Source of the DNA: a virus
Direction: 5' to 3' (one strand)
UHGV virus genome: UHGV-0189011
DNA length: 12,541 bases
The notes beneath the pieces are model-generated. The model was given only the letters and a program-made list of their open reading frames with translations, ran no database searches and was not told the origin of the DNA. This document shows positions 1-12,541 of the stretch, piece by piece; within the stretch, counting starts at the first letter, position 1; the number at the start of each line of letters is the position of its first letter. The position numbers and the translations under genes are program-made.

Positions 1-40
1 CGCAGGCATTGTTATCAACCCGGCAACAGGGAGGAGCCCT

Positions 41-277
41 ATGCCCGTTATTGCCATTATCGCCATTGTTGCCATCGTCATCATTCTGAACAAAACCGGG
101 GTGTCCGACAGTCTCGCGGCCCTGACCCTTGCCACTGTTGCCGCACTGCTGACGGGAGGTGGCGCAGCCGGTGCTGCCAGTGTCGCGCTGACACCGTTCG
201 TCGGCGTGCCGGTGGGTATTTTCGTCGGCATTTATGTCTTTGCCAAAGTGGTACGTCTGATTTCAGGGAAAAAATAA
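41..277 (+). CDS. small inner-membrane protein (78 aa, two predicted TM helices)
   Basis: ATG at 41 preceded by GGGAGGAG (28-35); hydrophobic segments IAIIAIVAIVIIL and VGVPVGIFVGIYVFA separated by a Gly/Ala-rich linker; stop TAA 275-277 overlaps the next ATG (TAATG). Resembles YkfL/YpjK-type small membrane proteins (recalled). Confidence 0.6.
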   Translation: MPVIAIIAIVAIVIILNKTGVSDSLAALTLATVAALLTGGGAAGAASVALTPFVGVPVGIFVGIYVFAKVVRLISGKK

Positions 278-720
278 TGAAATGTAAAACACTACCTCTG
301 CTGGCGATGGTTGCCACCACTCTGTTTCTGAGCGCCTGCGATGACAGGAGTGATGACCTGAAAGCTATCAGTAAATTTAAGGACCTCACGCCTCCGCGCT
401 TCAGCGATGTGGTCAGTCGGCAGGATGATGTCAGCGAAGAATGGTCACAGGTTGGCTTTTCATCAGGTCTCACCCTGCAGGTCTTACGTACCCGTGAGTC
501 GCCCGATGGCTGCGAGGGCGGTAGTTACTACTACCTCGTGGATATGCAGGAAAAAACCATCCAGCCGCTGATGAATGCGCTGTGTATTGCCGATAACATC
601 AAACTGGAATACCAGGAGGTGACGGACCCGTATACCAAAGAAAAATACTTTGAGTACGCCCATGACGGCAAACTGATGGGGCAGCTACTGATACCCTCGA
701 ACCCTGACAATCAGGAATAA
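277..720 (+). CDS. yafY: lipoprotein (YafY/YfjS-like), 147 aa
   Basis: N-terminal signal peptide with lipobox LSAC followed by DD; ATG at 277 coupled to the upstream stop; stop TAA 718-720. Symbol is by recalled synteny with E. coli CP4-6 and is tentative. Confidence 0.6.
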   Translation: MKCKTLPLLAMVATTLFLSACDDRSDDLKAISKFKDLTPPRFSDVVSRQDDVSEEWSQVGFSSGLTLQVLRTRESPDGCEGGSYYYLVDMQEKTIQPLMNALCIADNIKLEYQEVTDPYTKEKYFEYAHDGKLMGQLLIPSNPDNQE

Positions 721-742
721 AACAACGACAAAGGAGACAAGA

Positions 743-1210
743 ATGACAATACTTTCACTAAGTCGGTTTATGCTGGCGGGTGTACTGCTCGCGAGCTTTA
801 ATGCCTCTGCTATCCCGGGGTTCTGGCAGCAGGGTTACGGTCAGGGCAATACGGAATACAGCGTGACCGAAGCCAGCGGAAAGACGTTTACCATCAACTG
901 CACAGGGAACCCGGACCAGAATGGTTTCTATCAGCATTCAGTCTTTCTTACCCTTGCCGATGACAAGATGGTCAGTTCGCACGATGACGACACTACTATC
1001 ACCGTAGTGATGGATCACCAGCAGTACATTATTCCGTCCAGCCTGGGCTGGCGTAACGGCGATAACGCCTGGTTTGACTTCATCAGCAATATCTCTGAGG
1101 CCGGGCAGTTCGACGTCTACGTCAATGACCACAAAGCAGGGACCTTCACTGCGGACCGGAAGAACACTGAGAAAGTTCTGTCCACTCTCGGAGACTGCAG
1201 CAACGACTGA
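743..1210 (+). CDS. secreted/periplasmic protein with cleavable signal peptide (YkfB/YfjT-like), 155 aa
   Basis: ATG at 743 with AAGGAG SD (731-736); N-terminal hydrophobic signal [23 protein letters not shown]; stop TGA 1208-1210. Confidence 0.6.
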
Positions 1211-1236
1211 TAGTAGTATCTTCCCCAGCAAATCCA

Positions 1237-1271
1237 CCCCGACAGCTAGCAGGCTGCCGGGGTTTTCTTTT
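1237..1271 (+). terminator. putative rho-independent terminator between the secreted-protein gene and the DUF905 gene
   Basis: GC-rich hairpin ccccgacag/ctgccgggg (8 of 9 bp paired, 8-nt loop) at 1237-1262, immediately followed by the T-tract ttttctttt (1263-1271). Confidence 0.45.
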
Positions 1272-1286
1272 ATCAGGAGCCCGAAA

Positions 1287-1526
1287 ATGACCCAATCCGT
1301 GTTGCTGCCACCGGGGCCTTTCACCCGGAGACAAGCGCAAGCGGTCACTACCACGTACAGCAATATCACACTCGAAGACGACCAGGGCAGTCACTTCCGT
1401 CTGGTGGTTCGTGATACTGAAGGCCGGATGGTCTGGCGGGCATGGAACTTTGAGCCGGATGCCGGTGAAGGTCTTAACCGCTATATCCGCACCTCAGGCA
1501 TCCGTACAGACACGGCCACCCGCTGA
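1287..1526 (+). CDS. ykfF: DUF905 family protein (YkfF-like), 79 aa
   Basis: ATG at 1287 with AGGAG SD (1275-1279); product [20 protein letters not shown]... matches the recalled YkfF/DUF905 family. The longer ORF from 1074 is rejected because it overlaps the upstream gene and terminator. Confidence 0.7.
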
Positions 1527-1623
1527 TCGCGAAGCATTTACCCGCATTCACCTCCCCGAACACACTTTATATCCCCATACGCCAGCCATCGCCGCTGGCG
1601 TTTTTATTGACGGAGACATACCC

Positions 1624-2082
1624 ATGACAACACAGACGCAGCACGACCTCGCACCCGCTAACCAACCCGAATTTGAACTGACCGTCACGCCGGTCCCCGA
1701 TGAACAGCGTATCGATTTCTGGCCACAGTACTTTGGCGCTATCCCGCAGTGGCTACTCCTGGAGCCGCATATCTTCGCCTGGATGGATCGCTTCTGTGAG
1801 GGCTACAGCGGTGGTATCTGGTCGTTCTACACCCTCAGCAATGGCGGCGCATTTATGTCCCCCGAGCCTGACAACGATGAGACATGGCGTCTGTTTAACT
1901 GCCTGAACGGTAACGATGCCCAAATGAGTGCAGAAGCAGCAGGTATTGCTGTCTGCCTGATTGCGTATAGCCACCATGCCTGCCGTACAGAATGTGACGC
2001 GATGACCGCACACTATTACCGCCTGCGGGAGTATGCCATGCAACATCCAGAGGCTCACGCCATTCTGCGTATTATCGACTGA
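1624..2082 (+). CDS. yafX: antirestriction protein, KlcA/ArdB family (YafX/YfjX-like), 152 aa
   Basis: ATG at 1624 with GGAGA SD; product MTTQTQHDLAPANQPEFELTVTPVPDEQRIDFWPQYFG... is typical of the enterobacterial island antirestriction family; stop TGA 2080-2082. Confidence 0.75.
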   Translation: MTTQTQHDLAPANQPEFELTVTPVPDEQRIDFWPQYFGAIPQWLLLEPHIFAWMDRFCEGYSGGIWSFYTLSNGGAFMSPEPDNDETWRLFNCLNGNDAQMSAEAAGIAVCLIAYSHHACRTECDAMTAHYYRLREYAMQHPEAHAILRIID

Positions 2083-2097
2083 CCGAAGGAGCAACAG

Positions 2098-2574
2098 ATG
2101 AAACAGCTTTCCTTTTTACCCGGCGAGATGACGCCACAGGACCGGCGTCTCATTCAGCGGGCGCTCAGGGCTCTGGACCGCCACCTGCATGAGCCCGGCG
2201 TAGCCTTCACCTCTACCCACGCCGTACGTGAATGGCTGCGACTGCATATGGCCGCGCTTGAACGGGAAGAGTTCCGGGTGTTGTATCTGGACAACCAGAA
2301 TCAGTTGATTGCCCATGAAACGCTCTTCACCGGCACGATTAACCGCACCGAGGTGCATCCCCGGGAGGTGGTCAAACGTGCTCTGCACTTCAACGCGGCG
2401 GCGGTGATACTCGCGCATAACCATCCTTCCGGCGAGACGACACCTAGCCAGGCCGACAAAACCCTCACGCAGCGACTGGTTCAGGTGCTTCAGCTGGTGG
2501 ATATCCGTGTCCCTGACCATCTGATTGTCGGTGGCAGGCAAATCTATTCGTTCGCAGAACACGGTCTGCTTTGA
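2098..2574 (+). CDS. ykfG: RadC-like JAB/MPN domain protein (UPF0758; YkfG/YfjY/YeeS-like), 158 aa
   Basis: ATG at 2098 with GAAGGAG SD; JAMM-like motif HNHPSGETTPSQAD in the product; stop TGA 2572-2574. Confidence 0.8.
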   Translation: MKQLSFLPGEMTPQDRRLIQRALRALDRHLHEPGVAFTSTHAVREWLRLHMAALEREEFRVLYLDNQNQLIAHETLFTGTINRTEVHPREVVKRALHFNAAAVILAHNHPSGETTPSQADKTLTQRLVQVLQLVDIRVPDHLIVGGRQIYSFAEHGLL

Positions 2575-2582
2575 GGTATTAC

Positions 2583-2804
2583 ATGAAAATTATCAGTAAA
2601 CGCAGGGCAATGACGATATACCGCCAGCATCCTGAGTCCCGAATCTTTCGCTACTGCACCGGCAAATACCAGTGGCACGGTAGCGTCTGTCATTACACCG
2701 GCAGGGACGTTCCGGATATCGCCGGAGTCCTCGCGGTATACGCCGAACGCCGCCAGGACCGCAATGGGCCCTATACCTGCCTGATGAGCATCACCCTGAA
2801 CTGA
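2583..2804 (+). CDS. ykfH: DUF987 family protein (YkfH-like), 73 aa
   Basis: ATG at 2583 (the track ORF from 2571 begins with TTG); product MKIISKRRAMTIYRQHPESRIFRYCTGKYQWHG...; conserved position between the RadC-like gene and the antitoxin in CP4-type modules. Confidence 0.65.
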   Translation: MKIISKRRAMTIYRQHPESRIFRYCTGKYQWHGSVCHYTGRDVPDIAGVLAVYAERRQDRNGPYTCLMSITLN

Positions 2805-2822
2805 CAATAGTGGAGAACTGTA

Positions 2823-3502
<680 letters not shown>

Positions 3503-3567
3503 ACATTGCGTACAACCTTCCCGATTTACATTTCTGAACTTCCTCCCTTGTTTACCTATTGCGTAAT

Positions 3568-3604
3568 GCGCCTGCTACTACCCGGCAGGCGCGTTATCTT
3601 TTTA
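3568..3604 (+). terminator. putative rho-independent terminator downstream of the toxin gene
   Basis: Perfect 8-bp GC-rich inverted repeat gcgcctgc / gcaggcgc (3568-3575 and 3585-3592, 9-nt loop) followed by gttatcttttta. Confidence 0.5.
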
Positions 3605-3873
3605 CGGACAAACAATCATGCAACCAGAAGTTGAAGTATTAACCGATCATAATGAGCTAATTTGTTCGAGCTTTATTGAACACATTGCCAACACATTAAA
3701 TTTAGGAGTGGTGTACAACTAAACCTGCAGCCAAGGATGTATAGTGAGCGAAGCCCTATCAGGCCTTTTTGGTCAGTAGATAAGATTGATCTTCGTTGAT
3801 AGAATTTACTTACACCAGCTGTTACATTAAGATAATTTTTTGGTGGGAGAATGATAAGATCTTACGTAACAAT

Positions 3874-3929
3874 TTGATTTTAATGGTGCCGATAATAGGA
3901 GTCGAACCTACGACCTTCGCATTACGAAT
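3874..3929. repeat. attR-type direct repeat: copy of the 3' 46 nt of thrW (3884-3929) plus 10 bp of flank
   Basis: 3882-3929 is identical over 48 bp to 12453-12500; 3874-3929 matches 12445-12500 with one mismatch (offset 8571 bp). Identity stops exactly where the tRNA anticodon region begins (3930 c versus 12501 g). Confidence 0.9.
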
Positions 3930-4163
3930 CTGTAGCACCAATCATAACTATCTGTTTTAGCAAGCATTAACCGCATTCACTAAGCTATAGTTGATGGCAC
4001 AAACAGAAAGTTGATGCATGATGTTGTCATGCGTATGTCACAAATACGGCACAACAATCTTCAAATATGTAGACACACATCTACAGGAGAGCACAAAGCC
4101 TTGCAATACAGTGCAAAGCCTTGTGTGTCTCAGTTTTGTCCTGTGTGCCAGATATTGAATGGC

Positions 4164-4766
4164 CTACGCCTCCGGCAGTTCAGGCCAGATGACATCCGGC
4201 GCGGTGCTGGTATCTGTTACCGTCACCGCGTCAATGTAATCCAGCACGGCGTTAAGTCGGGTTGTTTCTGCCTGCGTCAGCTTCCGCCCGGCCTGTAATT
4301 TCAGTTGAATCAGACTAATGGAAGCCATTGCAGCATCAATCAGTGACTGGCGCTGTGCTTCTGCCGCGTCTACTGCGGCGCTATGCTGTGCCTCAGTATC
4401 GGTCACCCATTTCTCACCATCCCATTTATCGTATGGCGTTAATGGGGCGATAGTGGTTGTATTTTCAGGGTAATCACCCGGAGCGGTGATTTCTTTTGAT
4501 TCTCCTGTTTTGGTGCTATAGACCGTTTCACCGCGATGGTCTGGCACATATTCCCATGAGTTAAAATCTGCAGAACGGCAGATTGCATAACCAGCCTTAT
4601 GTGTGCCAGGGGCATCTAAACAGGAACATGCCGGAATGCCGATACCAACGGCAAGATATTCATTTGAAGTGGAAATATATTCCCGAGTTTCACCATCATA
4701 GCTATAGACGGTAATATTCCCCGCCTTCGTGGCAATAAGCTCGCTATTTAATACAGCGTTATCCAT
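4164..4766 (-). CDS. tail fiber assembly protein (Tfa; Caudovirales tail-assembly chaperone family), 200 aa
   Basis: Product has the Tfa family hallmarks (WEYVPDHRGETVYSTKTGE, EKWVTDTEAQ, VTDTSTAPDVIWPELPEA C-terminus), as in TfaE/TfaQ-type proteins; ATG at 4766 overlaps the fiber stop (TAATG); stop TAG 4164-4166. Confidence 0.8.
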   Translation of the reverse strand: MDNAVLNSELIATKAGNITVYSYDGETREYISTSNEYLAVGIGIPACSCLDAPGTHKAGYAICRSADFNSWEYVPDHRGETVYSTKTGESKEITAPGDYPENTTTIAPLTPYDKWDGEKWVTDTEAQHSAAVDAAEAQRQSLIDAAMASISLIQLKLQAGRKLTQAETTRLNAVLDYIDAVTVTDTSTAPDVIWPELPEA

Positions 4767-5500
4767 TATACAGCCCTCACGATAAAGTTAAATGCAATAT
4801 TTCGCGCACGTGTTTCCGTTGATGTTCTGGCAACACGTGATGCATCAAAATAATAATTCGCCTGTTTATATGTACCACCTGTCGCAATTGATGCGAGATT
4901 TGGTGTCAATGTTGAAGAGGTAAATGCGCCGACAGTATTATTATTTGGCCCCGTGGTCATATCCAAAAAGCTACCTGTAATATTTTGCAGCGTATCGCTC
5001 TGAGCACTCAATAACGCTCGCCCACTGTCCACTCCACGCCCATCATCCCAGCCACGAATAAACTCACCACGTAAATCAGGCAATTTATTTGTCGGGTAAG
5101 CCTTTGCCAGCTCCGGGTATTCTTCAGCAGAAAAAGCTGCACCATTGCATTTCAACCAGCCTGTCGGTGGTGTAGCTGAAGGCCACGGAACAGGCACACC
5201 AACAGGTAATGCAGAGCCTTCTCCCAAACCAAGGTTTGTGGTAATCGCTGTCGCCAGCTTTGCCACCAGTCCATCAACGTCACCATCATCGAGCGCGTCC
5301 AGTTCGGCGTTCGCGATAAACTGCCCCAGTACAGCCGCCATCGTCGACGGTTGGCGCAGCGCTTTACTGACCTGTGCGCTGGATGCTTTACCCGAGGAGA
5401 ATCCTTTCTTCAGTGCGGTTAGCGTCTCCCATTCCTCCTGCGAGGTAACATTTGCATTAGCATCTGTCGCAAACGCTTTAAAATCATTAGTTCCAGCCAT
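4766..5500 (-). CDS. short tail fiber protein with C-terminal phage tail-collar domain, 244 aa
   Basis: C-terminal motif WLKCNGAAFSAEEYPELAKAYP...LPDLRGEFIRGW is typical of the tail-collar domain; start chosen at ATG 5500 (GGGGGAG SD, TAATG overlap with the upstream stop) rather than the track start at 5518; immediately followed by the Tfa gene. Confidence 0.7.
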   Translation of the reverse strand: MAGTNDFKAFATDANANVTSQEEWETLTALKKGFSSGKASSAQVSKALRQPSTMAAVLGQFIANAELDALDDGDVDGLVAKLATAITTNLGLGEGSALPVGVPVPWPSATPPTGWLKCNGAAFSAEEYPELAKAYPTNKLPDLRGEFIRGWDDGRGVDSGRALLSAQSDTLQNITGSFLDMTTGPNNNTVGAFTSSTLTPNLASIATGGTYKQANYYFDASRVARTSTETRARNIAFNFIVRAV

Positions 5501-6180
5501 TAAAGTAATCTCCCCCATGCGCCGTCATCAAAACCGGCGATGTATTCGTTATCCATGTCAAATCCAAAGAATTTTGTTCCTTCGGACGGTGTTTCGACCG
5601 AGGGTGTTTCAACGCCGCCAGCCCATACACCAGCAGCTTTAACGGTGAGATAACCCTGTTTGATAGCGGCTATCAGTTCGAGTGACACATCAGAAATATC
5701 AGTCTCGGGAAAAACCCAGACCGATATCGTCATGTCCTGGTTATCGACGATCTGCATCTTCAGTCCAGAGCCTGCGGTAGCAGCGTCAAGGATGGGAGGC
5801 AGAGAGTCGTTCCGACCATCCCAGTTGTTGATAGCGATTTTCGCTTTCAGAATGATGCGGTACGTCTCATCACTCAGCGTCGTATAGCCAGAATCAGGAT
5901 CATATGGCCCTTGCCAGATGCCCTGGTCATATCCGAGCCCGTCAGTGTCCCAGCTGAAATAAACGCCGCTAATTGGCTGGCTGACTATACGACTACGCCC
6001 AATCCACAGGCCGAGGATATCGAGTTGCACGCCAACCGCCGTATCGATATCGAAGGCTGTTACAAGCCCTGACATAGTGCTGGACACATCAATCAGCGGG
6101 CGGGTGCTCAGATCTATATGGTCAAAAAAGAGTGGCTTGGTAGCGTGGTAGTTAGTGATCAGTTCGGTGTATTTGCTCAT
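5500..6180 (-). CDS. putative tail/baseplate structural protein, 226 aa
   Basis: Intact ORF coupled by ATGA overlap to the upstream gene; lies between a putative baseplate-like protein and the tail fiber; contains a [13 protein letters not shown] motif. Family not confidently recognised. Confidence 0.45.
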
Positions 6181-7277
6181 GAGGTCACCGTGATAGTGAT
6201 ATTCGCGGTGCTACAGGACGCCGAAGCATCATAGGCAATATCAATGTTTGATGCCGATACGCTGCCAGACGACTTACCGATCAGCAGGTCGGTAATATCG
6301 TAATAGCGGGCATTCCCGCCGCTCACAACGCCGAGGTTTGCCGGGGAATAAATACGGCTCAGCAGAACGTCGTCGCCAATTGTTAGGCCATTTATATAAT
6401 CGGCAACAGCCTGTTTAATCTGCTCGCCGATTTGAGAGGTATAGCCGGTAAAAACTTTCAGGGTAATGGCTACGAAAATTGGCACATCGGTAGAGCGCGA
6501 AAAACTGATGACGTGAGGATTACCATAAGTATCCGGCACTGTGACAGAAGTTGTCCCGTAGGTTGCCGTTCCCTGTCCTTTATTCCCCCTGATGGCCTGG
6601 GCAATTTCGGTAACATCCCCACCATCGACGATGGCGGAAATCGAGTGTGGCGGCAGCCCATTGCTGTCGGTTGCCCCCGTGTCGTTCTCATACAGTTTGT
6701 GACGTGTCACGCCAGCAATGTTAGCGATTGCACCGTCGACGCCTTCAAACGGTGTGACCGATGGTAGCGCGACGCTTTGCCCCTGCCGAATGCGCAGCTC
6801 TGCGTCGGTTTCAGCTGGTGAACCGACAGTAGCCGCAGCCGGGTTGGTTACCGACACCCAGCCGCGAGTCGGTGTGTTAATGGTGGTAATAGTCCCGGCC
6901 ATCGCCGCAACCGAACCGCTATTCGCACATGTGGCCGTAACCAGTACAGTACCGTCAACGCCGATCGCTACACTTGCGGGAAAATTCCAGATAATGCCGT
7001 TTTTATCCCGTGCGGAGCCATTCGTGATAGTTGTTCCCGCCGTACCGGTTAACAGAAGGTCAGCAGTAGAGTTTGTCGCTACTTTTCGCGTGATCCCGTT
7101 AATTTTCACATTGCTGCTATCTTCAACGCCAGAATACAGGCGAACACGCTCGCTTGTCGGGATCACGTTAGATGAGCCCAGAATCAGCAGCGCACCGAAG
7201 TTACGCCCGGTTGCCGCCGTCGCCGCCATAATCACATCAACGTTAACAACGTTGGAAACAGGTAAGCCCTGTGCCAT
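6177..7277 (-). CDS. putative tail/baseplate structural protein (possibly baseplate J-like), 366 aa
   Basis: ATG at 7277 with GGAGA SD; Thr/Gly/Ala/Val-rich beta-type composition; the [11 protein letters not shown] motif is reminiscent of baseplate J / gp6-like proteins (recalled, uncertain); positioned two genes upstream of the fiber. Confidence 0.45.
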
Positions 7278-7280
7278 AGA

Positions 7281-7844
7281 TTAATCTCCAAAAAATGATA
7301 CTGGTACATCCACCAGCAATTTGATGCCGTATTCGCGCACAACCTTACGGCGCAGTCGCACCGTCATGTCGTAACGGCGAACCCATTGCTGGTTGATAAG
7401 TTCGGGGAAAGGAGTCAGACCGGTATAGTCGCCAAGGGACAAACCAAGAGCGTTAAGCTCAGCATTATTTTGCGGGACAGATATGCCATCACGAAAACGG
7501 GACGCATAAGACATACCAGCCGGGCCATAGAACGACGCCATGCACTCGAACGTTTCATGCCTCCAGAGCTGAGCGCCCTCTTCAGTCTGCCAGGTGAATG
7601 CAGGGTTGTTATCAATGAGCAACCCGGTAACGCCAAACGCGCACCAGTTCGTTTCAACGGGTGGCAGTGGCGGCTGGTCTTTCTGCCAGCGCGGGCGAAC
7701 CATCCCAGCAGGCAAGCCGGAAACGTTGCGCATCCACTGACTTAACAGCCTGTCTAGCGCTTCGTCATAATCCGGATCGCCGCTGGTGGGTGTCAGCCAG
7801 CCGCGCTCTGTGCTGGTGTTATTGCTCAACGGGAGTTCCCCCAT
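7281..7844 (-). CDS. phage structural protein of unknown function (start uncertain)
   Basis: ORF is open from a TTG at 7907; the first ATG is at 7844, with no convincing SD; stop TAA 7281-7283 lies 4 nt upstream of the next start. Confidence 0.4.
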   Translation of the reverse strand: MGELPLSNNTSTERGWLTPTSGDPDYDEALDRLLSQWMRNVSGLPAGMVRPRWQKDQPPLPPVETNWCAFGVTGLLIDNNPAFTWQTEEGAQLWRHETFECMASFYGPAGMSYASRFRDGISVPQNNAELNALGLSLGDYTGLTPFPELINQQWVRRYDMTVRLRRKVVREYGIKLLVDVPVSFFGD

Positions 7845-8208
7845 CAAACGGCAGTAATTCACAATGCGCCTGGACAAAGCCAGCACCGTAAGCCGTGTAC
7901 GGGTCAACGAATGTCACACGATAATCACGGTTCTGGTACGTCACGATATCGGCGTCACGGCCAGTCTGCCCCTGCGTCAGCCGCTCAGTTGTCACGATGA
8001 GAATCGCGCCACTGATAACTTGCCCGGACTGCATACGGCGGTTCTCCAGGGAGCGGTCAACGGTAACAACTCCGGCAAACTGCGTTTTTACTTCGCTGTC
8101 ACTGCCGATCCCGTCATCGTCCACCGTTTGCACGCGACGCGTTACCCACAGGTTGAAGTCGCAAAAATCGGGGTCAAAAAGTACGTCCGTCACATCAAGA
8201 TTCGGCAT
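7819..8208 (-). CDS. putative head-tail joining / head-closure type protein, 129 aa
   Basis: ATG at 8208 with GAGGG SD; 14-nt overlap with the upstream gene; size and position after the connector genes. Family not confidently recognised. Confidence 0.4.
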   Translation of the reverse strand: MPNLDVTDVLFDPDFCDFNLWVTRRVQTVDDDGIGSDSEVKTQFAGVVTVDRSLENRRMQSGQVISGAILIVTTERLTQGQTGRDADIVTYQNRDYRVTFVDPYTAYGAGFVQAHCELLPFDGGTPVEQ

Positions 8209-8782
8209 CTTTATCCCTCACAACGTGGGTAATGGCTCTGCGGTACTGTCCGGTATCAATCAACGGCCTTACATTCTCATTGCTTATCAATTGACCAGAA
8301 TCTGGGTTGATAGCATTAAGCTTTCCATCTGCTGATCTGCGTGCTAACTCAGCTTTAGCCCCTTTGCGCCCTCGACGTGCTCGGGCCTCTACGGTGCTAT
8401 CAGCAAGCGGTGTAAAGCCGGTAATGGTCATGTAACGCCTGACGCCATTCGCGGCCAGCGTTCCGGCGCGGTTAAGCGCTCTTTCCGCACCCGCCGCATT
8501 TCCATCAAGCGCAGCCTGCGCCGCTGCTTTGAGCTGCGGCACCGTCTGTTCCTCTACGGATTTAACGCCGGGGATCAGGTGCGGGCGTGGGGGTATGTTT
8601 TGCGCTGGTGAGCCGTATTCGTTGACGTAACCGATCCCGGCATTACCAAACGGAACATCCTCACGCTCGCTGTCTTCTTCCGGGATGCCCACCAGCACAT
8701 CCTTTTTGGTTAGCGACCGGAGCGCATCCAGAATGGCCTGAGCGTTATCAACCCTCGTTGTTACACCACTTTTGAAACTCAT
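8195..8782 (-). CDS. putative head-tail connector component (HK97 gp10-like?), 195 aa
   Basis: ATG at 8782 overlaps the upstream stop (ATGA); [16 protein letters not shown] resembles the E-F/Y-G ... RPF signature recalled for the HK97 gp10 family (tentative). Confidence 0.45.
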
Positions 8783-9198
8783 AGCTGGCGACCGCCCGCA
8801 CCGAACATCGTGATCAGCTGATAAAATTCAGCGCCATATCGGGTGTTATTCCAGAAGCCTGCGTCAGGGTTTAGCGTCGCGCTGGTGTCATAGCTGACGC
8901 TTACCTTGTCAACGGACTTGGAGGACTGAACACCATTGGTTGAGCCACCCGGGCCGCCGACGAGCATTGCCCGGCTATCTGCCGCCCAGAGCGTCATGTA
9001 GTGAGCCACGAACAACTCGACAAAGTACGGAAACAACTCTTTGCCGGTGACGTTTTCGCTCAGCAGCACATCAGCCAGATTCAGACGAAACTGGATTTGT
9101 GCTTCGGGATATTTGGCAGGGTCAGCAAACTGTGGAAAGTCGCGCCGAAAATCACTTACTGTTGGCAGGCTTTGATTCTTTGGCATCTTTTGCCCCAT
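8779..9198 (-). CDS. putative head-tail adaptor protein, 139 aa
   Basis: Intact ORF overlapping both neighbours; position immediately after the capsid genes; alternative ATG start at 9186. Confidence 0.4.
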
Positions 9199-9520
9199 TA
9201 CCGCCAGTCTGGGCGGCAGAAATCTGCGCTTGCAGGCTGTCGTTCTGCTCTTGCATCTTGAGCAGCGCTTCTTTCAGATCGGCAATCAGCTGATCTTTAT
9301 CGACAATCTGCGCTTGCAGGCTGTCGATAATGGGTTGCAGATCATCGGTGTCGCTAATCACGCTTTCGGAAAGCTCAGAGTGCGCCTGGGTGAACCAGTG
9401 CGACGCGACCTCTTCCGGTACGTTATGCCGTCCCCGGCCAAACTCCTGTTTTGACTGATCGCCCAGCGTCAGCGTAAACGGGGTGTGAACATGGATGGTA
9501 ACCAGCTTTTCTTTCGCCAT
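9152..9520 (-). CDS. small phage structural protein with coiled-coil C-terminal half, 122 aa
   Basis: ATG at 9520 with AAGGA SD; heptad-like region [35 protein letters not shown]; first gene after the capsid-gene hairpin. Confidence 0.45.
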
Positions 9521-9535
9521 TTTCAGTTTCCTTCT

Positions 9536-9551
9536 GGCCCCTTTCGGGGCC
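9536..9551 (-). promoter_or_regulatory. stable GC stem-loop with GNRA (GAAA) tetraloop immediately downstream of the putative major capsid gene
   Basis: Minus-strand RNA reads GGCCCC-GAAA-GGGGCC, 11 nt after the capsid stop (9562-9564); no U-tract follows, so more likely an mRNA-stabilising or attenuating hairpin than a full terminator. Confidence 0.4.
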
Positions 9552-9561
9552 GTTCTGGTTA

Positions 9562-10503
9562 TCAGATACCGTCCACGTAGGACAGGGTTTCTTTGTACAC
9601 TGGCTCAACCGCACCGAGCTTGCCGTAGTAGGTCGCAATCTGGTACAGACCGCGATACTGGATAGGAACGCTCTGCAACGGCACCAGCGGATAGCGCACG
9701 TATTTCTTGTCGTTGGTGTAGGCGACCATACGGTCTTTACCGCCAACGCCGCGCCCTTTCAGCCATTTGACCGCTTTGATTTCCAGCGGAACGCCGTTCT
9801 GGTGGAAAGCGATAGTGTTCACGGCCAGATAGGTCAGTAGTGACTGGTTACCCGCTTCGGAAACCTTACGGCTCGCCAGCAGTGAATACTGCTCTGGCGG
9901 AATGCGCAGATCAGAAGGCACAACGGAATAACCGGATGCTGCCCAGGCATTCGACAGAATACTGTTCACGCTATCGAGGATTTCGTCGTTGGTGGAGTTC
10001 GCCCAGGTCTTCGGCGCATTGTTCAGCGTCACACCCACAAGGTTTGCCAGACCTTTCAGGCCGAGCGCATCATCGCCGATGTAAACCTGCTCGTCGTTGT
10101 CCATCTGCCATTTGAGCTGCATCCCGTCGTACTTCTGGGTATCAATCGGGCGGCCTACCTGCTGAGCTGCTGCCAGCTCTACAACGGTCCAGCCCAGTTC
10201 CATGCCCCAGAGGTTCAACGGATTGCCGTCTTTGCCGATATCAACGTTCACGCCAGCAATAGCGGTGGAGTCTTTACCTACCCAGTTTTTACCATTCGGA
10301 TTTGCACCAGTACCCGCAGCGGCGAAGCTGGTATTCGTCCAGCTGGAAATGTCATCTGCGATAGACACGTCTTCACGCAGTTGAATATCTCGGGTCCAGG
10401 TGTACCCCACCAGAGGCAGGTTCAGCGTCTGGTCGAGTCGCTCCAGCTCCCCGATGAGAAAGGCACCGGAGCTATCTACGGTTGCCTGATCAAAAGTAAT
10501 CAT
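9562..10503 (-). CDS. putative major capsid protein, 313 aa
   Basis: ATG at 10503 with AAGGA SD; third gene of the structural operon after the acidic scaffold-like and small capsid-associated genes; followed by a strong stem-loop; size and composition fit a small major capsid protein. Fold not verified. Confidence 0.5.
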   Translation of the reverse strand: MITFDQATVDSSGAFLIGELERLDQTLNLPLVGYTWTRDIQLREDVSIADDISSWTNTSFAAAGTGANPNGKNWVGKDSTAIAGVNVDIGKDGNPLNLWGMELGWTVVELAAAQQVGRPIDTQKYDGMQLKWQMDNDEQVYIGDDALGLKGLANLVGVTLNNAPKTWANSTNDEILDSVNSILSNAWAASGYSVVPSDLRIPPEQYSLLASRKVSEAGNQSLLTYLAVNTIAFHQNGVPLEIKAVKWLKGRGVGGKDRMVAYTNDKKYVRYPLVPLQSVPIQYRGLYQIATYYGKLGAVEPVYKETLSYVDGI

Positions 10504-10514
10504 TTGTCTGTTCC

Positions 10515-11018
10515 TTAAATCTTCCAGGAGATTTCTGCATTACCGTTAGCGTCACCGGCACCTGTGAATTCGGCGTTGGTCAGCGCCACGTTTTTGCCAC
10601 TGACGGACGTGGACATGAAGCCGCCCAGCGGCACTTTGATGGATTCATCAGTGGAGACGACAACGTATACCGGGTCGCCTTTTTTGATGGTGCTGGCATC
10701 AAAATCAGAACCGAGATTAACGGTCATGTAGCCACGCTTCATGGCGTCACCCGGGAAGTTCTTATCCGTCCCCACCTGGCGAACCATGTCTGGCTGCGAT
10801 GTGGTCGGATACGGACGAACGTAGATCCCCTTCACCTTGTCGGCGGTGTCACCGTCCGCCAGCGGCACGAAAAAGCCGTCAGCGTCATATTTGCCAGCCA
10901 GACCATAGGCAGCGAAGGCGTTAGCGGATTTAAGGATCACCGTCTCGACGGTTAAATCCTGCGGGCGAGAGATAGCCCCGGCAATGCCAACAGGCATCCG
11001 GTTCAAATATGCAGTCAT
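10515..11018 (-). CDS. putative capsid-associated (decoration/cement-type) structural protein, 167 aa
   Basis: ATG at 11018 with AAGGA SD; located between the scaffold-like and capsid genes; beta-rich, Gly/Asp-rich sequence. Confidence 0.45.
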   Translation of the reverse strand: MTAYLNRMPVGIAGAISRPQDLTVETVILKSANAFAAYGLAGKYDADGFFVPLADGDTADKVKGIYVRPYPTTSQPDMVRQVGTDKNFPGDAMKRGYMTVNLGSDFDASTIKKGDPVYVVVSTDESIKVPLGGFMSTSVSGKNVALTNAEFTGAGDANGNAEISWKI

Positions 11019-11022
11019 TGGA

Positions 11023-11511
11023 TTATCCTTTGCGGTTAGACCAGAAGTCGGCGTTTTGTTTGTTCAGGGAAGCGATGCTGGTCATGCCCATATTTGGACG
11101 TTGTGCATCGCCCGTGGTGCTGCGGGTGTTTCGCCCTTTGGCAATCTCAGACACGGCGTTAAACGCCATATCGACCGATTGCTTGGGCAATTTGCGGATA
11201 TCTGCATCACCGACAACCTGGCGAACCAGTGTTTTGTCAGCGGCGGACAGCACATCACGTTTGAACGCGGTCGGTTTCACCTTACGGCTCAGATCGATAC
11301 CCGGAACGATAACTTCGGCACGATAAGCAGCGTCACCGGTAATCGTGGTTTCCTCTTCGTCGTCCTCACCGTCGCCGGTAGGGTCTTTGTTATCTTTGCC
11401 GTCAGGCTTATCGTCGTTATCGCCCGTTGCAGTACCTTCCAGCTTAGCCAGCAGGGCTTTGAGCAAGGTTTTGATATCGTCCTCGCCGTCGCCGGTTGGC
11501 TCTCCGCCCAT
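11023..11511 (-). CDS. acidic scaffolding-like protein with duplicated PTGDGEDD motif (possibly 5'-truncated at the deletion junction)
   Basis: The ORF is open up to 11733, but the part above about 11607 is antisense to the integrase remnant, so the first plausible ATG is 11511 (weak SD); very acidic, low-complexity N-terminal half and alpha-helical C-terminal half; stop TAA 11023-11025. Confidence 0.4.
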   Translation of the reverse strand: MGGEPTGDGEDDIKTLLKALLAKLEGTATGDNDDKPDGKDNKDPTGDGEDDEEETTITGDAAYRAEVIVPGIDLSRKVKPTAFKRDVLSAADKTLVRQVVGDADIRKLPKQSVDMAFNAVSEIAKGRNTRSTTGDAQRPNMGMTSIASLNKQNADFWSNRKG

Positions 11512-11606
11512 TTCCGGCTTTTTGTCCGGCAATGGTTGTTGCGGTGAAAGATTAATGTTGAGGTTAACGCCGCTCGGCAGATCCCCTTCATCGCCCGTTA
11601 GACGGG

Positions 11607-12440
11607 ATGGAAAACCGCCGCCATCGCCTGAACTGGGAGATGAGCCGGGACAGGTGTTTGCGGCTTGGCAAGCCAGTGCCGGAGTATAAACCAAAGCTGG
11701 CAAGCAAAGGAACGAAGACGCGGCATCTGGCAATACTTCGCGCTATTCTCAATATGGCTGTTGAATGGGGATGGCTTGACAGGACGCCCAAAATATCAAC
11801 ACCACGCGTTAAGAATGGACGAATCAGATGGCTTACAGAGGAGGAATCGAAGCGCCTGTTTGCAGAAATTGCTCCTCATTTCTTCCCTGTGGTCATGTTT
11901 GCAATCACGACAGGCCTTCGCCGCTCCAACGTTACAGACCTTGAGTGGTCACAGGTCGATCTGGATAAGAAAATGGCATGGATGCACCCTGATGAAACAA
12001 AAGCTGGCAATGCGATCGGAGTTCCTCTTAACGAAACCGCATGCCAGATATTAAGAAAACAGCAGGGGCTCCATAAGAGATGGGTATTTGTCCACACCAA
12101 ACCTGCCTACCGAAGCGACGGAACAAAAACAGCTGCGGTAAGGAAGATGAGAACCGATAGCAACAAGGCATGGAAGGGAGCGTTAAAGCGGGCAGGCATT
12201 AGCAACTTCCGCTTCCATGACCTGAGGCATACCTGGGCAAGTTGGCTGGTTCAGTCCGGAGTCTCTCTTCTTGCACTTAAAGAGATGGGAGGATGGGAAA
12301 CTCTCGAAATGGTTCAAAGATACGCTCACCTTTCAGCCGGGCATCTCACCGAGCACGCGAGCAAAATCGATGCGATTATAAGTCGCAATGGCACAAATAC
12401 GGCACAAGAGGAGAACGTAGTTTACTTAAATGCGAGGTAA
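11607..12440 (+). CDS. int: tyrosine integrase, P22 Int-like, C-terminal catalytic part only (N-terminal arm-binding region absent; probable pseudogene remnant)
   Basis: Product has the tyrosine-recombinase catalytic signature (TGLRRSN ... HDLRHTWASWLVQSG ... YAHL); in-frame stop TAA at 11565-11567 leaves only 13 codons upstream of the first ATG; phage integrases of this type are about 390 aa, versus 277 aa here; ends 14 nt from the thrW 3' end. Confidence 0.8.
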   Translation: MENRRHRLNWEMSRDRCLRLGKPVPEYKPKLASKGTKTRHLAILRAILNMAVEWGWLDRTPKISTPRVKNGRIRWLTEEESKRLFAEIAPHFFPVVMFAITTGLRRSNVTDLEWSQVDLDKKMAWMHPDETKAGNAIGVPLNETACQILRKQQGLHKRWVFVHTKPAYRSDGTKTAAVRKMRTDSNKAWKGALKRAGISNFRFHDLRHTWASWLVQSGVSLLALKEMGGWETLEMVQRYAHLSAGHLTEHASKIDAIISRNGTNTAQEENVVYLNAR

Positions 12441-12444
12441 CTTA

Positions 12445-12500
12445 TTGATTTAAATGGTGCCGATAATAGGAGTCGAACCTACGACCTTCGCATTACGAAT
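12445..12500. repeat. attL-type direct repeat (3' part of intact thrW plus 10-bp flank), partner of 3874-3929
   Basis: Exact 48-bp identity between 12453-12500 and 3882-3929. Confidence 0.9.
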
Positions 12501-12530
12501 GCGCTGCTCTACCAACTGAGCTATATCGGC
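12455..12530 (-). tRNA. thrW: tRNA-Thr (anticodon CGU)
   Basis: The reverse complement reads GCCGATATAGCTCAGTTGGTAGAGCAGCGCATTCGTAATGCGAAGGTCGTAGGTTCGACTCCTATTATCGGCACCA: 7-bp acceptor stem GCCGATA/TATCGGC, anticodon loop with CGT, T-loop GGTTCGACTCC, encoded CCA. Confidence 0.95.
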
Positions 12531-12541
12531 CCTGAAAGGAC

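Follow-up and report, generated by a model that had tools for sequence, protein, structure and literature searches.

The window analysed here, a 12,541-nucleotide stretch of the UHGV virus genome UHGV-0189011, carries the thrW-proximal end of a CP4-6-type island at one end and an intact threonine tRNA gene at the other, with phage structural genes and an integrase gene in between (Table 1). A maximal exact direct repeat of 48 bp, AATGGTGCCGATAATAGGAGTCGAACCTACGACCTTCGCATTACGAAT, occurs twice in the same orientation, 8571 bp apart, once at the island junction and once at the tRNA. The gene proA lies past the window end; the proA-thrW context is present in K-12 and in the longest matching contig (L003), in which frsA-crl-phoE-proBA-thrW adjoin the phage genes and which stops on the island side at a GTPase/WYL/IS region.

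Table 1. Features of the window at thrW.
Feature	Coordinates	Strand	Evidence
CP4-6-type island, thrW-proximal end	1..3881	+	98.9%, gap-free to K-12 266781-262901
ypjK-like (ykfL-region)	41-277	+	K-12 and 2017.10.01CC annotations
yafY	277-720	+	K-12 and 2017.10.01CC annotations
ykfB	743-1210	+	K-12 and 2017.10.01CC annotations
ykfF	1287-1526	+	K-12 and 2017.10.01CC annotations
yafX	1624-2082	+	K-12 and 2017.10.01CC annotations
ykfG (RadC/JAB)	2098-2574	+	K-12 and 2017.10.01CC annotations
ykfH	2583-2804	+	K-12 and 2017.10.01CC annotations
yafW antitoxin	2823-3140	+	K-12 and 2017.10.01CC annotations
ykfI toxin	3161-3502	+	K-12 and 2017.10.01CC annotations
Distal att core copy, partial tRNA-Thr 3' end	3882..3929	-	exact 48-bp repeat; island/phage-remnant junction
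Int-distal attP arm	3930..4140	.	contiguous with core and int 3' end in HK446, 97.8%
Tail fibre assembly protein, 200 aa, intact	4164..4766	-	91.5% aa to TOK-001 full length
Tail fibre/tail collar protein, 244 aa	4766..5500	-	Pfam Collar; 80% aa to TOK-001
DUF2612/baseplate wedge protein, 226 aa, intact	5500..6180	-	99.1% aa to TOK-001; Pfam Phage_Wedge1
Sheath::baseplate-J in-frame fusion ORF, 366 aa	6177..7277	-	Pfam Baseplate_J; protein alignment
Phage neck terminator protein	7281..7862	-	Pfam PF23961, E 1.9e-34; 94.5% to TOK-001
Head-tail connector gene, 129 aa	7819-8208	-	93-98.5% aa to TOK-001 (connector group)
Head-tail connector gene, 195 aa	8195-8782	-	93-98.5% aa to TOK-001 (connector group)
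Head-tail connector, DUF4054 protein	8779-9186/9198	-	Pfam DUF4054; 93-98.5% aa to TOK-001 (connector group)
STY1053-family small protein, 122 aa	9152..9520	-	annotation of homologues
Major capsid protein (DUF2184/PF09950), 313 aa, intact	9562..10503	-	Pfam E 1.4e-81; 98.7% to TOK-001
Capsid cement/minor capsid protein, 167 aa, intact	10515..11018	-	PF23982, PF22758; 98.8% to TOK-001
DUF2213 head gene, 3' half	11023..11600	-	TOK-001 DNA collinearity ends at window 11600
5'-truncated tyrosine integrase, 277 aa	11607..12440	+	Pfam Phage_integrase at residues 75-244
Int-proximal attP arm: tandem motif copies ATGGCACAAAT and ACGGCACAAGA	12388..12409	.	inside int 3' end
tRNA-proximal att core copy	12453..12500	-	exact 48-bp repeat
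Intact thrW, tRNA-Thr(CGU)	12455..12530	-	ARAGORN, Rfam

ARAGORN and Rfam each found one tRNA in the window, the tRNA-Thr(CGU), and no tRNA was called at the distal core copy. From the position of the tRNA, the repeat therefore consists of the 3' 46 nt of the tRNA and two downstream nt, and the coordinates and orientation that the first-pass annotation had given for it were reproduced. An exact repeat of 48 nt is not expected by chance in 12.5 kb (about 8e7 position pairs × 4^-48). The repeat extends imperfectly 16 nt leftward, to 64 nt at 94% identity; similarity stops 16 nt past the tRNA at one edge and, at the opposite edge, at the crossover boundary inside the tRNA, so it is not part of a longer duplication unrelated to the tRNA. 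The integrase-family ORF ends 14 nt before the tRNA 3' end, in keeping with the reported adjacency of the two genes.

In the island flank, gene content, order and thrW junction match those of K-12 (ykfI-yafW-ykfH-ykfG-yafX-ykfF-ykfB-yafY), and window 49-3929 aligns to K-12 over 3881 nt at 98.9% identity, collinear including the tRNA-core junction. The distal repeat copy thus adjoins the end of a CP4-6-type island, as had been proposed. CP4-6 in K-12 directly abuts intact thrW, whereas here an 8.5 kb phage remnant intervenes; intF and ptwF, about 34 kb away in K-12, fall outside the window, which holds only the thrW-proximal end. A terminator-like hairpin lies at 3563-3597 within the flank.

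The interval between the core copies behaves as an insertion with base-exact ends. K-12 MG1655 aligns gap-free to window 49-3929 and then resumes at 12501-12541 with a single core copy; because K-12 is continuous from 3929 to 12501 with one core, the interval is a clean indel, which is what the first-pass annotation had predicted for a relative carrying only the island at thrW. The ends of the interval can also be rejoined: window 11597-12500 joined to 3930-4140 gives one 1113-nt alignment to phage HK446 across its annotated attP, at 97.8% identity. That the rejoined ends are contiguous across attP in a free phage is the signature of Int-mediated integration. The repeat, the indel and the reconstructed attP are all direct observations, and the features of a prophage in a tRNA gene are present together, namely tRNA-derived terminal repeats, a clean indel, attP reconstruction and phage genes between the repeats.

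The attP arms retain repeated motifs. Around the core, [AC][TC]G[GT]CACAA occurs five times in one orientation, at offsets of -67/-56 and +65/+106/+117: a tandem pair in the int-proximal arm and three direct copies in the int-distal arm (3994, 4035 and 4046). The window holds only one further copy. Judged from sequence and arrangement, these are putative arm-type Int-binding sites. P22 and SfV carry GTCCCA repeats at matching distances, with the same 2 + 1 + 2 spacing around the core and with tandem repeats as far from the tRNA end as the int-proximal pair here; the motif itself differs, being GTCCCA in P22 and SfV and G[G/T]CACAA in the window. The int-attP module (core, both arms and five motifs; 97.8% DNA identity for HK446) is shared with phages HK446, HK75, mEp213, mEp043 and mEpX2. 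GenBank notes for HK446 and the mEp phages record that attP matches both thrW and ptwF, and Int of these phages is annotated as similar to SfX Int. HK and mEp phages have virion modules of other kinds, in contrast to the SEN34-like myovirus structural genes of the window.

The integrase gene is a remnant. It keeps 277 of 384 codons, the first being an internal Met equivalent to residue 108 of the complete protein; the catalytic domain is whole, but the arm-binding domain and some of the core-binding domain have been lost. Alignment with the full-length int of strain 2017.10.01CC shows homology from int nt ~312 onward. The 277 retained residues are 99.6% identical to HK446 Int; identity is 54.6% to SfV Int and 53.1% to P22 Int, the latter across 97% of the retained length (E 1e-94). 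In type the enzyme belongs with those of HK446, HK75, mEp213 and mEpX2 (annotated as similar to SfX Int) and is only distantly P22-like. thrW is indeed the published integration site of P22, ST64T, ST104 and the Shigella Sf phages, and P22 and SfV share with the window both the tRNA target and an int 3' end running into the same tRNA-derived core, even though their Int proteins are only 53-55% identical to this one. The earlier assignment to the P22 family at thrW accordingly stands for the site and for homology, with the qualification that this is a distant, HK446/HK75/SfX-like member. A helix-turn-helix/xis gene overlaps the int 5' end in E. coli HZ13, 2017.10.01CC and HK446; at this position the window has the truncated DUF2213 gene, with no excisionase upstream of int. 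The window lacks xis and the first 107 Int residues, and the ORF that annotators would call "integrase" is a 5'-truncated, pseudogene-like fragment.

Structural genes of the interval follow the order of SEN34-like phages, with DNA identities of 95.6% to Citrobacter phage Omnitron, 87.5% to Salmonella phage SEN34 (Brunovirus) and 94-96% to a prophage of E. coli TOK-001, which lies at a different chromosomal site with a different integrase. Apart from those cut at junctions, the genes that remain have their full length and no internal stops, and they share 80-99% identity with their counterparts in full-length relatives. SEN34 homologues of the connector genes (7819..9198), which also lack internal stops, are annotated as head-tail adaptor and Neck1. 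Pfam Caudo_TAP was matched on the identical tail fibre assembly gene in L003. The tail fibre/collar ORF reaches 5518, its 244 aa being counted from the ATG chosen by the gene caller, and its C-terminal part is mosaic, with no TOK-001 DNA match across 4827-5017. An exact 22-nt direct repeat lies inside the STY1053-family gene.

The virion set is incomplete, with only capsid-to-neck and baseplate J-to-tfa segments kept. Omnitron, SEN34 and the TOK-001 prophage are complete; terminase, portal, head morphogenesis, tube, tape measure and baseplate hub genes are absent here, and only 53 codons of the sheath remain. Two junctions account for this, and both, like the int truncation, are read directly from the alignments. 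At 7119|7120, TOK-001 collinearity is broken and 8548 bp (~8.5 kb) are skipped, with no microhomology found at the junction. This deletion leaves tail-sheath codon 53 joined, in frame, with codon 87 of baseplate J: residues 1-53 of the fusion ORF are the DUF3383 tail sheath N-terminus and residues 54-366 are baseplate J residues 87-399, so that the ORF called "baseplate J" is really a sheath::baseplate-J fusion. The second deletion (~24 kb) joins mid-DUF2213 to int nt ~312 at ~11596-11600, with 2-4 nt of microhomology; window 11600 is nt 656 of TOK-001 DUF2213, the 5' 655 nt of the gene being deleted. Together, the two deletions took ~33 kb of the ancestral phage.

A full-length counterpart in position and layout is found in E. 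coli HZ13 (NZ_CP128609.1, about 3.7325-3.7735 Mb), which carries a complete ~41 kb prophage at thrW. Its gene order runs int-xis-early-cI/cro-replication-nin-lysis-terminase-portal-DUF2213-cement-capsid-neck and continues after the neck with sheath-tube-tape measure-baseplate-J-DUF2612-fibre-tfa-att. Site, int type beside thrW, gene order, type of structural module and a tfa gene next to the distal core are all shared with the window. The baseplate and fibre region is only ~82% identical, and the outer neighbour of the HZ13 prophage is another prophage with its own integrase, as opposed to CP4-6 here. HZ13 is a case of tandem phages at thrW.

The remnant recurs in independent data. Exact copies of the fusion protein are encoded on 16 contigs and of the truncated Int on 38, the sources being independent samples and E. 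coli drafts, while the exact remnant was found in 0 of 5426 complete E. coli genomes. One contig of 8633 bp from an independent metagenome (L004) starts inside the tRNA and ends just beyond the distal core, and therefore has the same repeat at both its ends.

Taken together, a history for the locus emerges. The ancestor would have been a ~41 kb temperate phage combining an HK446/HK75-type int-xis-attP module with a SEN34-like (Brunovirus-type) myovirus structural module, which entered the 3' end of thrW in an E. coli lineage through recombination by its tyrosine integrase, most probably when a CP4-6-type island already occupied the site directly. Integration would have restored the tRNA with the core brought in by the phage, leaving the earlier core copy at the outer end and pushing the island 8571 bp outward. 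Two illegitimate deletions would then have cut the prophage down to 8.5 kb. The first, from sheath codon 53 to baseplate-J codon 86, would have removed the rest of the sheath, the tube, the chaperone, the tape measure and most of the baseplate; the second, from mid-DUF2213 to int codon ~105, the head morphogenesis, portal, terminase, lysis and Q/nin genes, together with replication, immunity and recombination genes, xis and the int 5' end. The outcome would be a locked-in cryptic remnant in which both att junctions and every putative arm-type site survive but no working integrase is left. We put the probability of this account as a whole (a ~41 kb phage at thrW beside the island, twice deleted to an immobile 8.5 kb remnant) at roughly 0.88. 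Parsimony favours one ancestral prophage over two tandem ones, of which one would have supplied the int fragment and the other the structural genes, joined by the second deletion; the tandem phages of HZ13 lend the latter some weight.

The order of events is where the main competing account departs, in that a phage may have entered an empty thrW first and the CP4-6-type island later used the distal partial core. Because the two 48-bp cores are identical, either could have been attB, and the order of insertion is unprovable from structure. The heavy deletion of the phage can be read as old age, and the match of attP in HK446 and the mEp phages to ptwF as well as thrW, recorded in GenBank notes, also counts in its favour. 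Against this, the island meets the core just as it does in K-12, and the K-12 arrangement, with the island directly at thrW, is found in 368 complete genomes; between strains the island sequence is 98.9-99.7% conserved, which fits long vertical residence; and the retained phage ORFs have no stops or frameshifts, which points to recent decay. A precedent exists as well. In a laboratory experiment on Shigella flexneri already carrying SfX, incoming SfI used the att on the thrW side of the resident phage (Sun et al. 2011, PMC3306764), giving the same thrW core, a head-to-tail stack with an att copy between and the newcomer beside proA-thrW. That pair comprises two intact, inducible, serotype-converting phages, whereas here an island stands next to a deletion remnant without gtr genes. 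In this one experimental case the newcomer used the tRNA-side att, and we consider the reversed order unlikely. The first-pass reading of an integrase-mediated insertion at an occupied tRNA site is therefore borne out for integration itself, by the indel and attP; that the island came first and the phage later is suggested by the population data and by analogy with SfX followed by SfI.

Considerably less probable still is a working role for the 8.5 kb, either as a small mobile element or as a domesticated module; a capsid-forming satellite, a mini-prophage mobilised in trans and a structural gene set that has been kept would be examples. The surviving ORFs are all intact and one junction is an in-frame fusion, the fusion protein has been deposited under a 'MAG TPA: Caudoviricetes sp.' record, and with the att junctions and five putative arm-type sites intact a superinfecting HK446-type phage might in principle excise the unit in trans. 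Yet both junctions run through genes that full-length relatives have whole, an in-frame fusion is expected by chance one time in three, and there is no terminase, portal, replication gene, regulatory gene, excisionase or full integrase. A consensus promoter scan, which is weak evidence, gave no evident promoter for the surviving late genes at the head-to-head junction. A repeat-flanked contig of 8.6 kb can, moreover, be mistaken for a terminally redundant viral genome, and virome surveys in which this unit assembles with 48-bp terminal repeats should be wary of calling it a complete small phage. A phage satellite (PICI, capsid-forming PICI or P4-like) was considered and rejected, as the unit has no intact integrase, regulatory or replication module of its own and its junctions cut genes. 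An assembly chimera, or a segmental duplication unrelated to the tRNA, can be dismissed: nothing speaks for it beyond the general tendency of short repeats to cause breaks or misjoins in short-read assemblies. Many contigs of independent origin (ENA, Logan, JGI and NCBI) encode the same junction proteins, the repeat is bounded at the tRNA, and the ends of the interval rebuild a known attP.

Returning to the deleted prophage favoured here, the boundaries that had been assigned to an 8.5 kb mobile element are exact to the base; its mobility does not hold for the present state, given an integrase of 277 rather than 384 aa, no excisionase and the loss of ~33 kb. From the parts that are missing, the 8.5 kb appears to be immobile and its genes are probably not expressed. 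Because the att junctions and five putative arm-type sites have survived, Int and Xis provided in trans by a superinfecting phage of the HK446/HK75 type might excise an 8.5 kb circle. We regard this as doubtful; such a circle might be lost, or possibly packaged as an accidental helper-dependent mini-element. Related to this is a trace at the apparently empty thrW site of E. coli, where ~70 bp of a former int 3' end remain as a fossil that includes a perfect double repeat of the arm type. On that view thrW would preserve three or more rounds of integration, and arm sites already resident there could affect subsequent ones.

The finding is correct but ordinary, and its kind is well known; it leaves the current understanding of tRNA-site integration unchanged. 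Its value lies mainly in annotation, through base-exact att boundaries and both deletion junctions of a cryptic remnant at thrW, and the locus shows cleanly how a single tRNA site comes to be occupied in layers, with rapid decay by deletion afterwards.

The longest exact self-match of the window is a 48-bp direct repeat whose copies, 8571 bp apart, comprise the 3' 46 nt of the tRNA-Thr(CGU) gene thrW, the single tRNA gene in the window, and the 2 nt downstream; the position and makeup reported in the first-pass annotation are thereby reproduced. Similarity between the copies extends imperfectly for 16 nt more downstream, giving 64 nt at 94% identity, and ends abruptly within the tRNA; a 48-bp match in 12.5 kb cannot be a product of chance. 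An Rfam search of the whole window returned the tRNA alone; the att arms yielded neither an sRNA nor a riboswitch. Left of the repeat, window 49-3929 aligns gap-free at 98.9% identity to Escherichia coli K-12 MG1655 266781-262901, the thrW-proximal end of the cryptic prophage CP4-6 (ykfI, yafW, ykfH, ykfG, yafX, ykfF, ykfB, yafY and the ykfL/ypjK region). On the other side, thrW and the spacer leading to proA (window 12445-12541) correspond to K-12 262956-262860. Because both flanks align to adjoining K-12 positions, window 3929 is joined directly to 12501 in K-12, with a single core copy; the interval is thus absent from a related genome as the clean indel that had been anticipated. In a metagenome contig encoding the same proteins (L003), the element adjoins frsA-crl-phoE-proB-proA-thrW, and the proA-thrW spacer differs from that of K-12 at 1 position; the host of the element is therefore E. 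coli.

When window 11597-12500 and 3930-4400 were rejoined, a single 1113-nt alignment to the coliphage HK446 was obtained (97.8% identity), running from inside int through the annotated attP to 211 nt past the core. As this alignment is continuous, the ends of the 8.5 kb interval are the two arms of a single phage attP, which is direct evidence for Int-mediated integration. With the integrases of HK446, HK75, mEp213, and mEpX2 the integrase ORF shares 99.6% identity, versus 54.6% for the Int of Shigella phage SfV and 53% for P22 Int. Published thrW integrators are P22, ST64T, ST104, and the Shigella Sf phages. The proposal of a P22-family integrase at thrW thus holds at the level of homology, but the enzyme is of HK446 type and P22-like only distantly. 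The ORF starts at an internal methionine, residue 108 of 384; its catalytic domain is complete (Pfam positions 2-170 of 172), while the arm-binding domain and part of the core-binding domain are missing.

The core is flanked by five copies of the motif [AC][TC]G[GT]CACAA, all in one orientation and arranged 2 + 1 + 2; on both strands of the remaining window there is only one further copy. P22 and SfV carry GTCCCA (or GTCTCA) repeats, also 2 + 1 + 2, whose distances from the core nearly match. Both repeat types are probable Int-binding sites of the arm type, with a motif that differs by type of Int. Within the int-distal arm, at 4094-4148, lies a block (caaagccttg...gtgtGTCTCAgttttGTCC) homologous to the P22/SfV block that bears the tandem GTCCCA/GTCTCA repeats; the HK446-type arm seems to combine its own repeat type with a P22/SfV-type relic ~85 nt further out.

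Features of the thrW locus in window coordinates
Feature	Coordinates	Strand	Remarks
48-bp repeat, island side	3882-3929		direct orientation
Putative arm-type motif, single	3994 (3994-4002)		other arm
Putative arm-type motif, pair	4035 + 4046 (4035-4054)		other arm
Genes 1-4		minus	tail fibre assembly, tail fibre, DUF2612 wedge, baseplate-J-like ORF
Sheath::baseplate-J fusion ORF	6177-7277	minus	gene 4; 366 aa; annotated as 'baseplate J'
Genes 5-8		minus	neck terminator, two connector proteins, DUF4054
Genes 9-12		minus	STY1053-family protein, DUF2184 major capsid, cement protein, DUF2213 head gene 3' half
Integrase ORF	11607-12440	plus	5'-truncated
Putative arm-type motif, tandem pair	12388, 12399 (12388-12409)		inside int 3' end
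48-bp repeat, thrW side	12453-12500		direct orientation
tRNA-Thr(CGU)	12455-12530	minus	thrW

Between the repeats, the structural genes all lie on the minus strand and are followed by the integrase fragment on the plus strand. At the DNA level they resemble Citrobacter phage Omnitron (95.6%), an E. coli prophage in TOK-001 (94-96%), and Salmonella phage SEN34 of the genus Brunovirus (87.5%). Collinearity with TOK-001 is lost at window 7119|7120, where 8548 bp are skipped with no microhomology at the junction. The joint falls at sheath-gene nt 158 and baseplate-J-gene nt 258 and keeps the reading frame, so that the 'baseplate J' ORF consists of sheath residues 1-53 and baseplate-J residues 87-399; its NCBI nr entry is a 'MAG TPA: Caudoviricetes sp.' record. 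At a second deletion, collinearity stops at window 11600, in DUF2213 gene nt 656, and homology to full-length int starts at 11596-11600, or int nt ~312, with just 2-4 nt of microhomology. The two genes truncated here face away from each other. This deletion, ~24 kb in the coordinates of the E. coli HZ13 prophage, removed xis and all regulatory, replication, lysis, and packaging genes. Apart from int and the DUF2213 fragment, the retained genes are full length and free of stops, with 80-99% protein identity to TOK-001; decay therefore proceeded by few large deletions and was probably recent.

TOK-001 itself is discounted as the full-length parent at thrW: the prophage in that strain is located near yciI-tonB, and its integrase is a different one. 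A complete relative of ~41 kb occupies thrW in E. coli HZ13, yet it is more divergent than TOK-001. Its genes run int, xis, early genes, cI/cro, replication, nin, Q, lysis, terminase, portal, and head morphogenesis; then DUF2213, cement, capsid, neck, sheath, tube, chaperone, and tape measure; and finally baseplate, baseplate J, DUF2612, fibre, and tfa, before the distal core. A second integrase gene ends at that core copy (HZ13 locus L008, 5406-6590), and HZ13 therefore holds two lambdoid prophages in tandem at thrW rather than an island and a phage. In principle, the second deletion could likewise have joined two tandem prophages, one supplying the int fragment and the other the structural genes; a single ancestral prophage is more parsimonious. 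An assembly artefact is excluded, as 16 contigs encode the exact fusion protein and 38 the exact truncated Int, NCBI E. coli drafts among them; protein records of that Int from such drafts include EZJ90398.1, EJV4781906.1, and GAB0980954.1. A satellite or domesticated module was rejected because the break points fall inside genes.

The locus reads as intact thrW, phage remnant, core copy, and island. The phage would have integrated into the intact thrW of a strain already holding the island there. A newcomer beside thrW with the older island outside, as previously proposed, fits this layout, but the two cores are identical, so that structure alone does not prove the order of arrival. Three lines of evidence favor the island having come first: the island-core junction lies directly at thrW in 368/5426 complete genomes, the phage-island junction is present in only 4-5, and in a laboratory experiment with a resident SfX prophage, Shigella phage SfI inserted into the att on the thrW side (PMC3306764). 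We place the probability of this order at about 0.8. The original observation and its interpretation are thereby upheld, with one main correction: what had been described as an 8.5 kb mobile element is a doubly deleted prophage remnant with a truncated HK446-type integrase. Going by the domain requirements of lambda-type integrases, the truncated Int and the loss of Xis would leave it immobile, unable to excise by itself; as the att sites are intact, a related phage might excise it in trans. Prophage decay and the stacking of elements at thrW are already well known, as is CP4-6, and the remnant is a further instance.

Across the 5426 complete E. coli genomes, none matched the window or either junction-spanning query at coverage of at least 80%. 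When the K-12 proA-thrW region was joined to the sequence after ptwF to give an artificial empty site, this site was covered to at least 80% in 948 of these genomes, with 100% identity in ATCC 8739, for example; strains thus differ in whether thrW is empty, holds only the island, or is multiply occupied. In 'empty' sites, the 69 nt past the tRNA-Thr 3' end match the 3' end of the window int in antisense, at ~83% identity. The match takes in the stop codon and a perfectly preserved double arm-type repeat, as well as a ...NVVYLNxx* peptide that is conserved across synonymous differences. Such sites therefore already bear the fossil of an older thrW phage. In K-12 this fossil lies on the far side of CP4-6, immediately after ptwF (L010 6256-6324; NC_000913.3 about 297256-297324), identical to that in empty sites such as ATCC 8739. 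E. coli MB06232 (NZ_CM129885.1 3678541-3685245) carries a different ~6 kb prophage remnant between ykfI and thrW, with an int fragment, acyltransferase, P22-like tailspike, DNA-transfer gene fragment, and full-length HK446-type int; prophage decay has therefore recurred here.

Minor sequence features were also recorded. The TOK-001 module, 94-96% identical elsewhere, has no DNA counterpart to 4827-5017, the stretch encoding the C-terminal part of the tail fibre; this is the usual host-range mosaic patch. The STY1053-family ORF contains an exact 22-nt direct repeat (9221-9242 and 9305-9326, 84 nt apart) encoding a duplicated DSLQAQI coiled-coil segment; its homologues vary in length (73, 122, and 129 aa). 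In the retained C-terminal part of DUF2213 (11360-11600), imperfect direct repeats encoding acidic TGDGEDD-like repeats are low-complexity coding sequence. The remaining short repeats (D2, D5, D7, D9-D14, I1-I11) were judged to be chance or coding-sequence similarity. Consensus promoter and terminator scans of 3400-12541 yielded counts near shuffled expectation, with nothing convincing at the head-to-head junction near 11600; the sole strong hairpin follows ykfI. Lastly, an independent assembly (ENA ERZ15610535) broke at the repeats, leaving an 8633-bp contig that spans the unit between them and carries the 48-bp core at each end (within 1-55 and 8579-8633); such contigs could pass for complete phage genomes that have direct terminal repeats.
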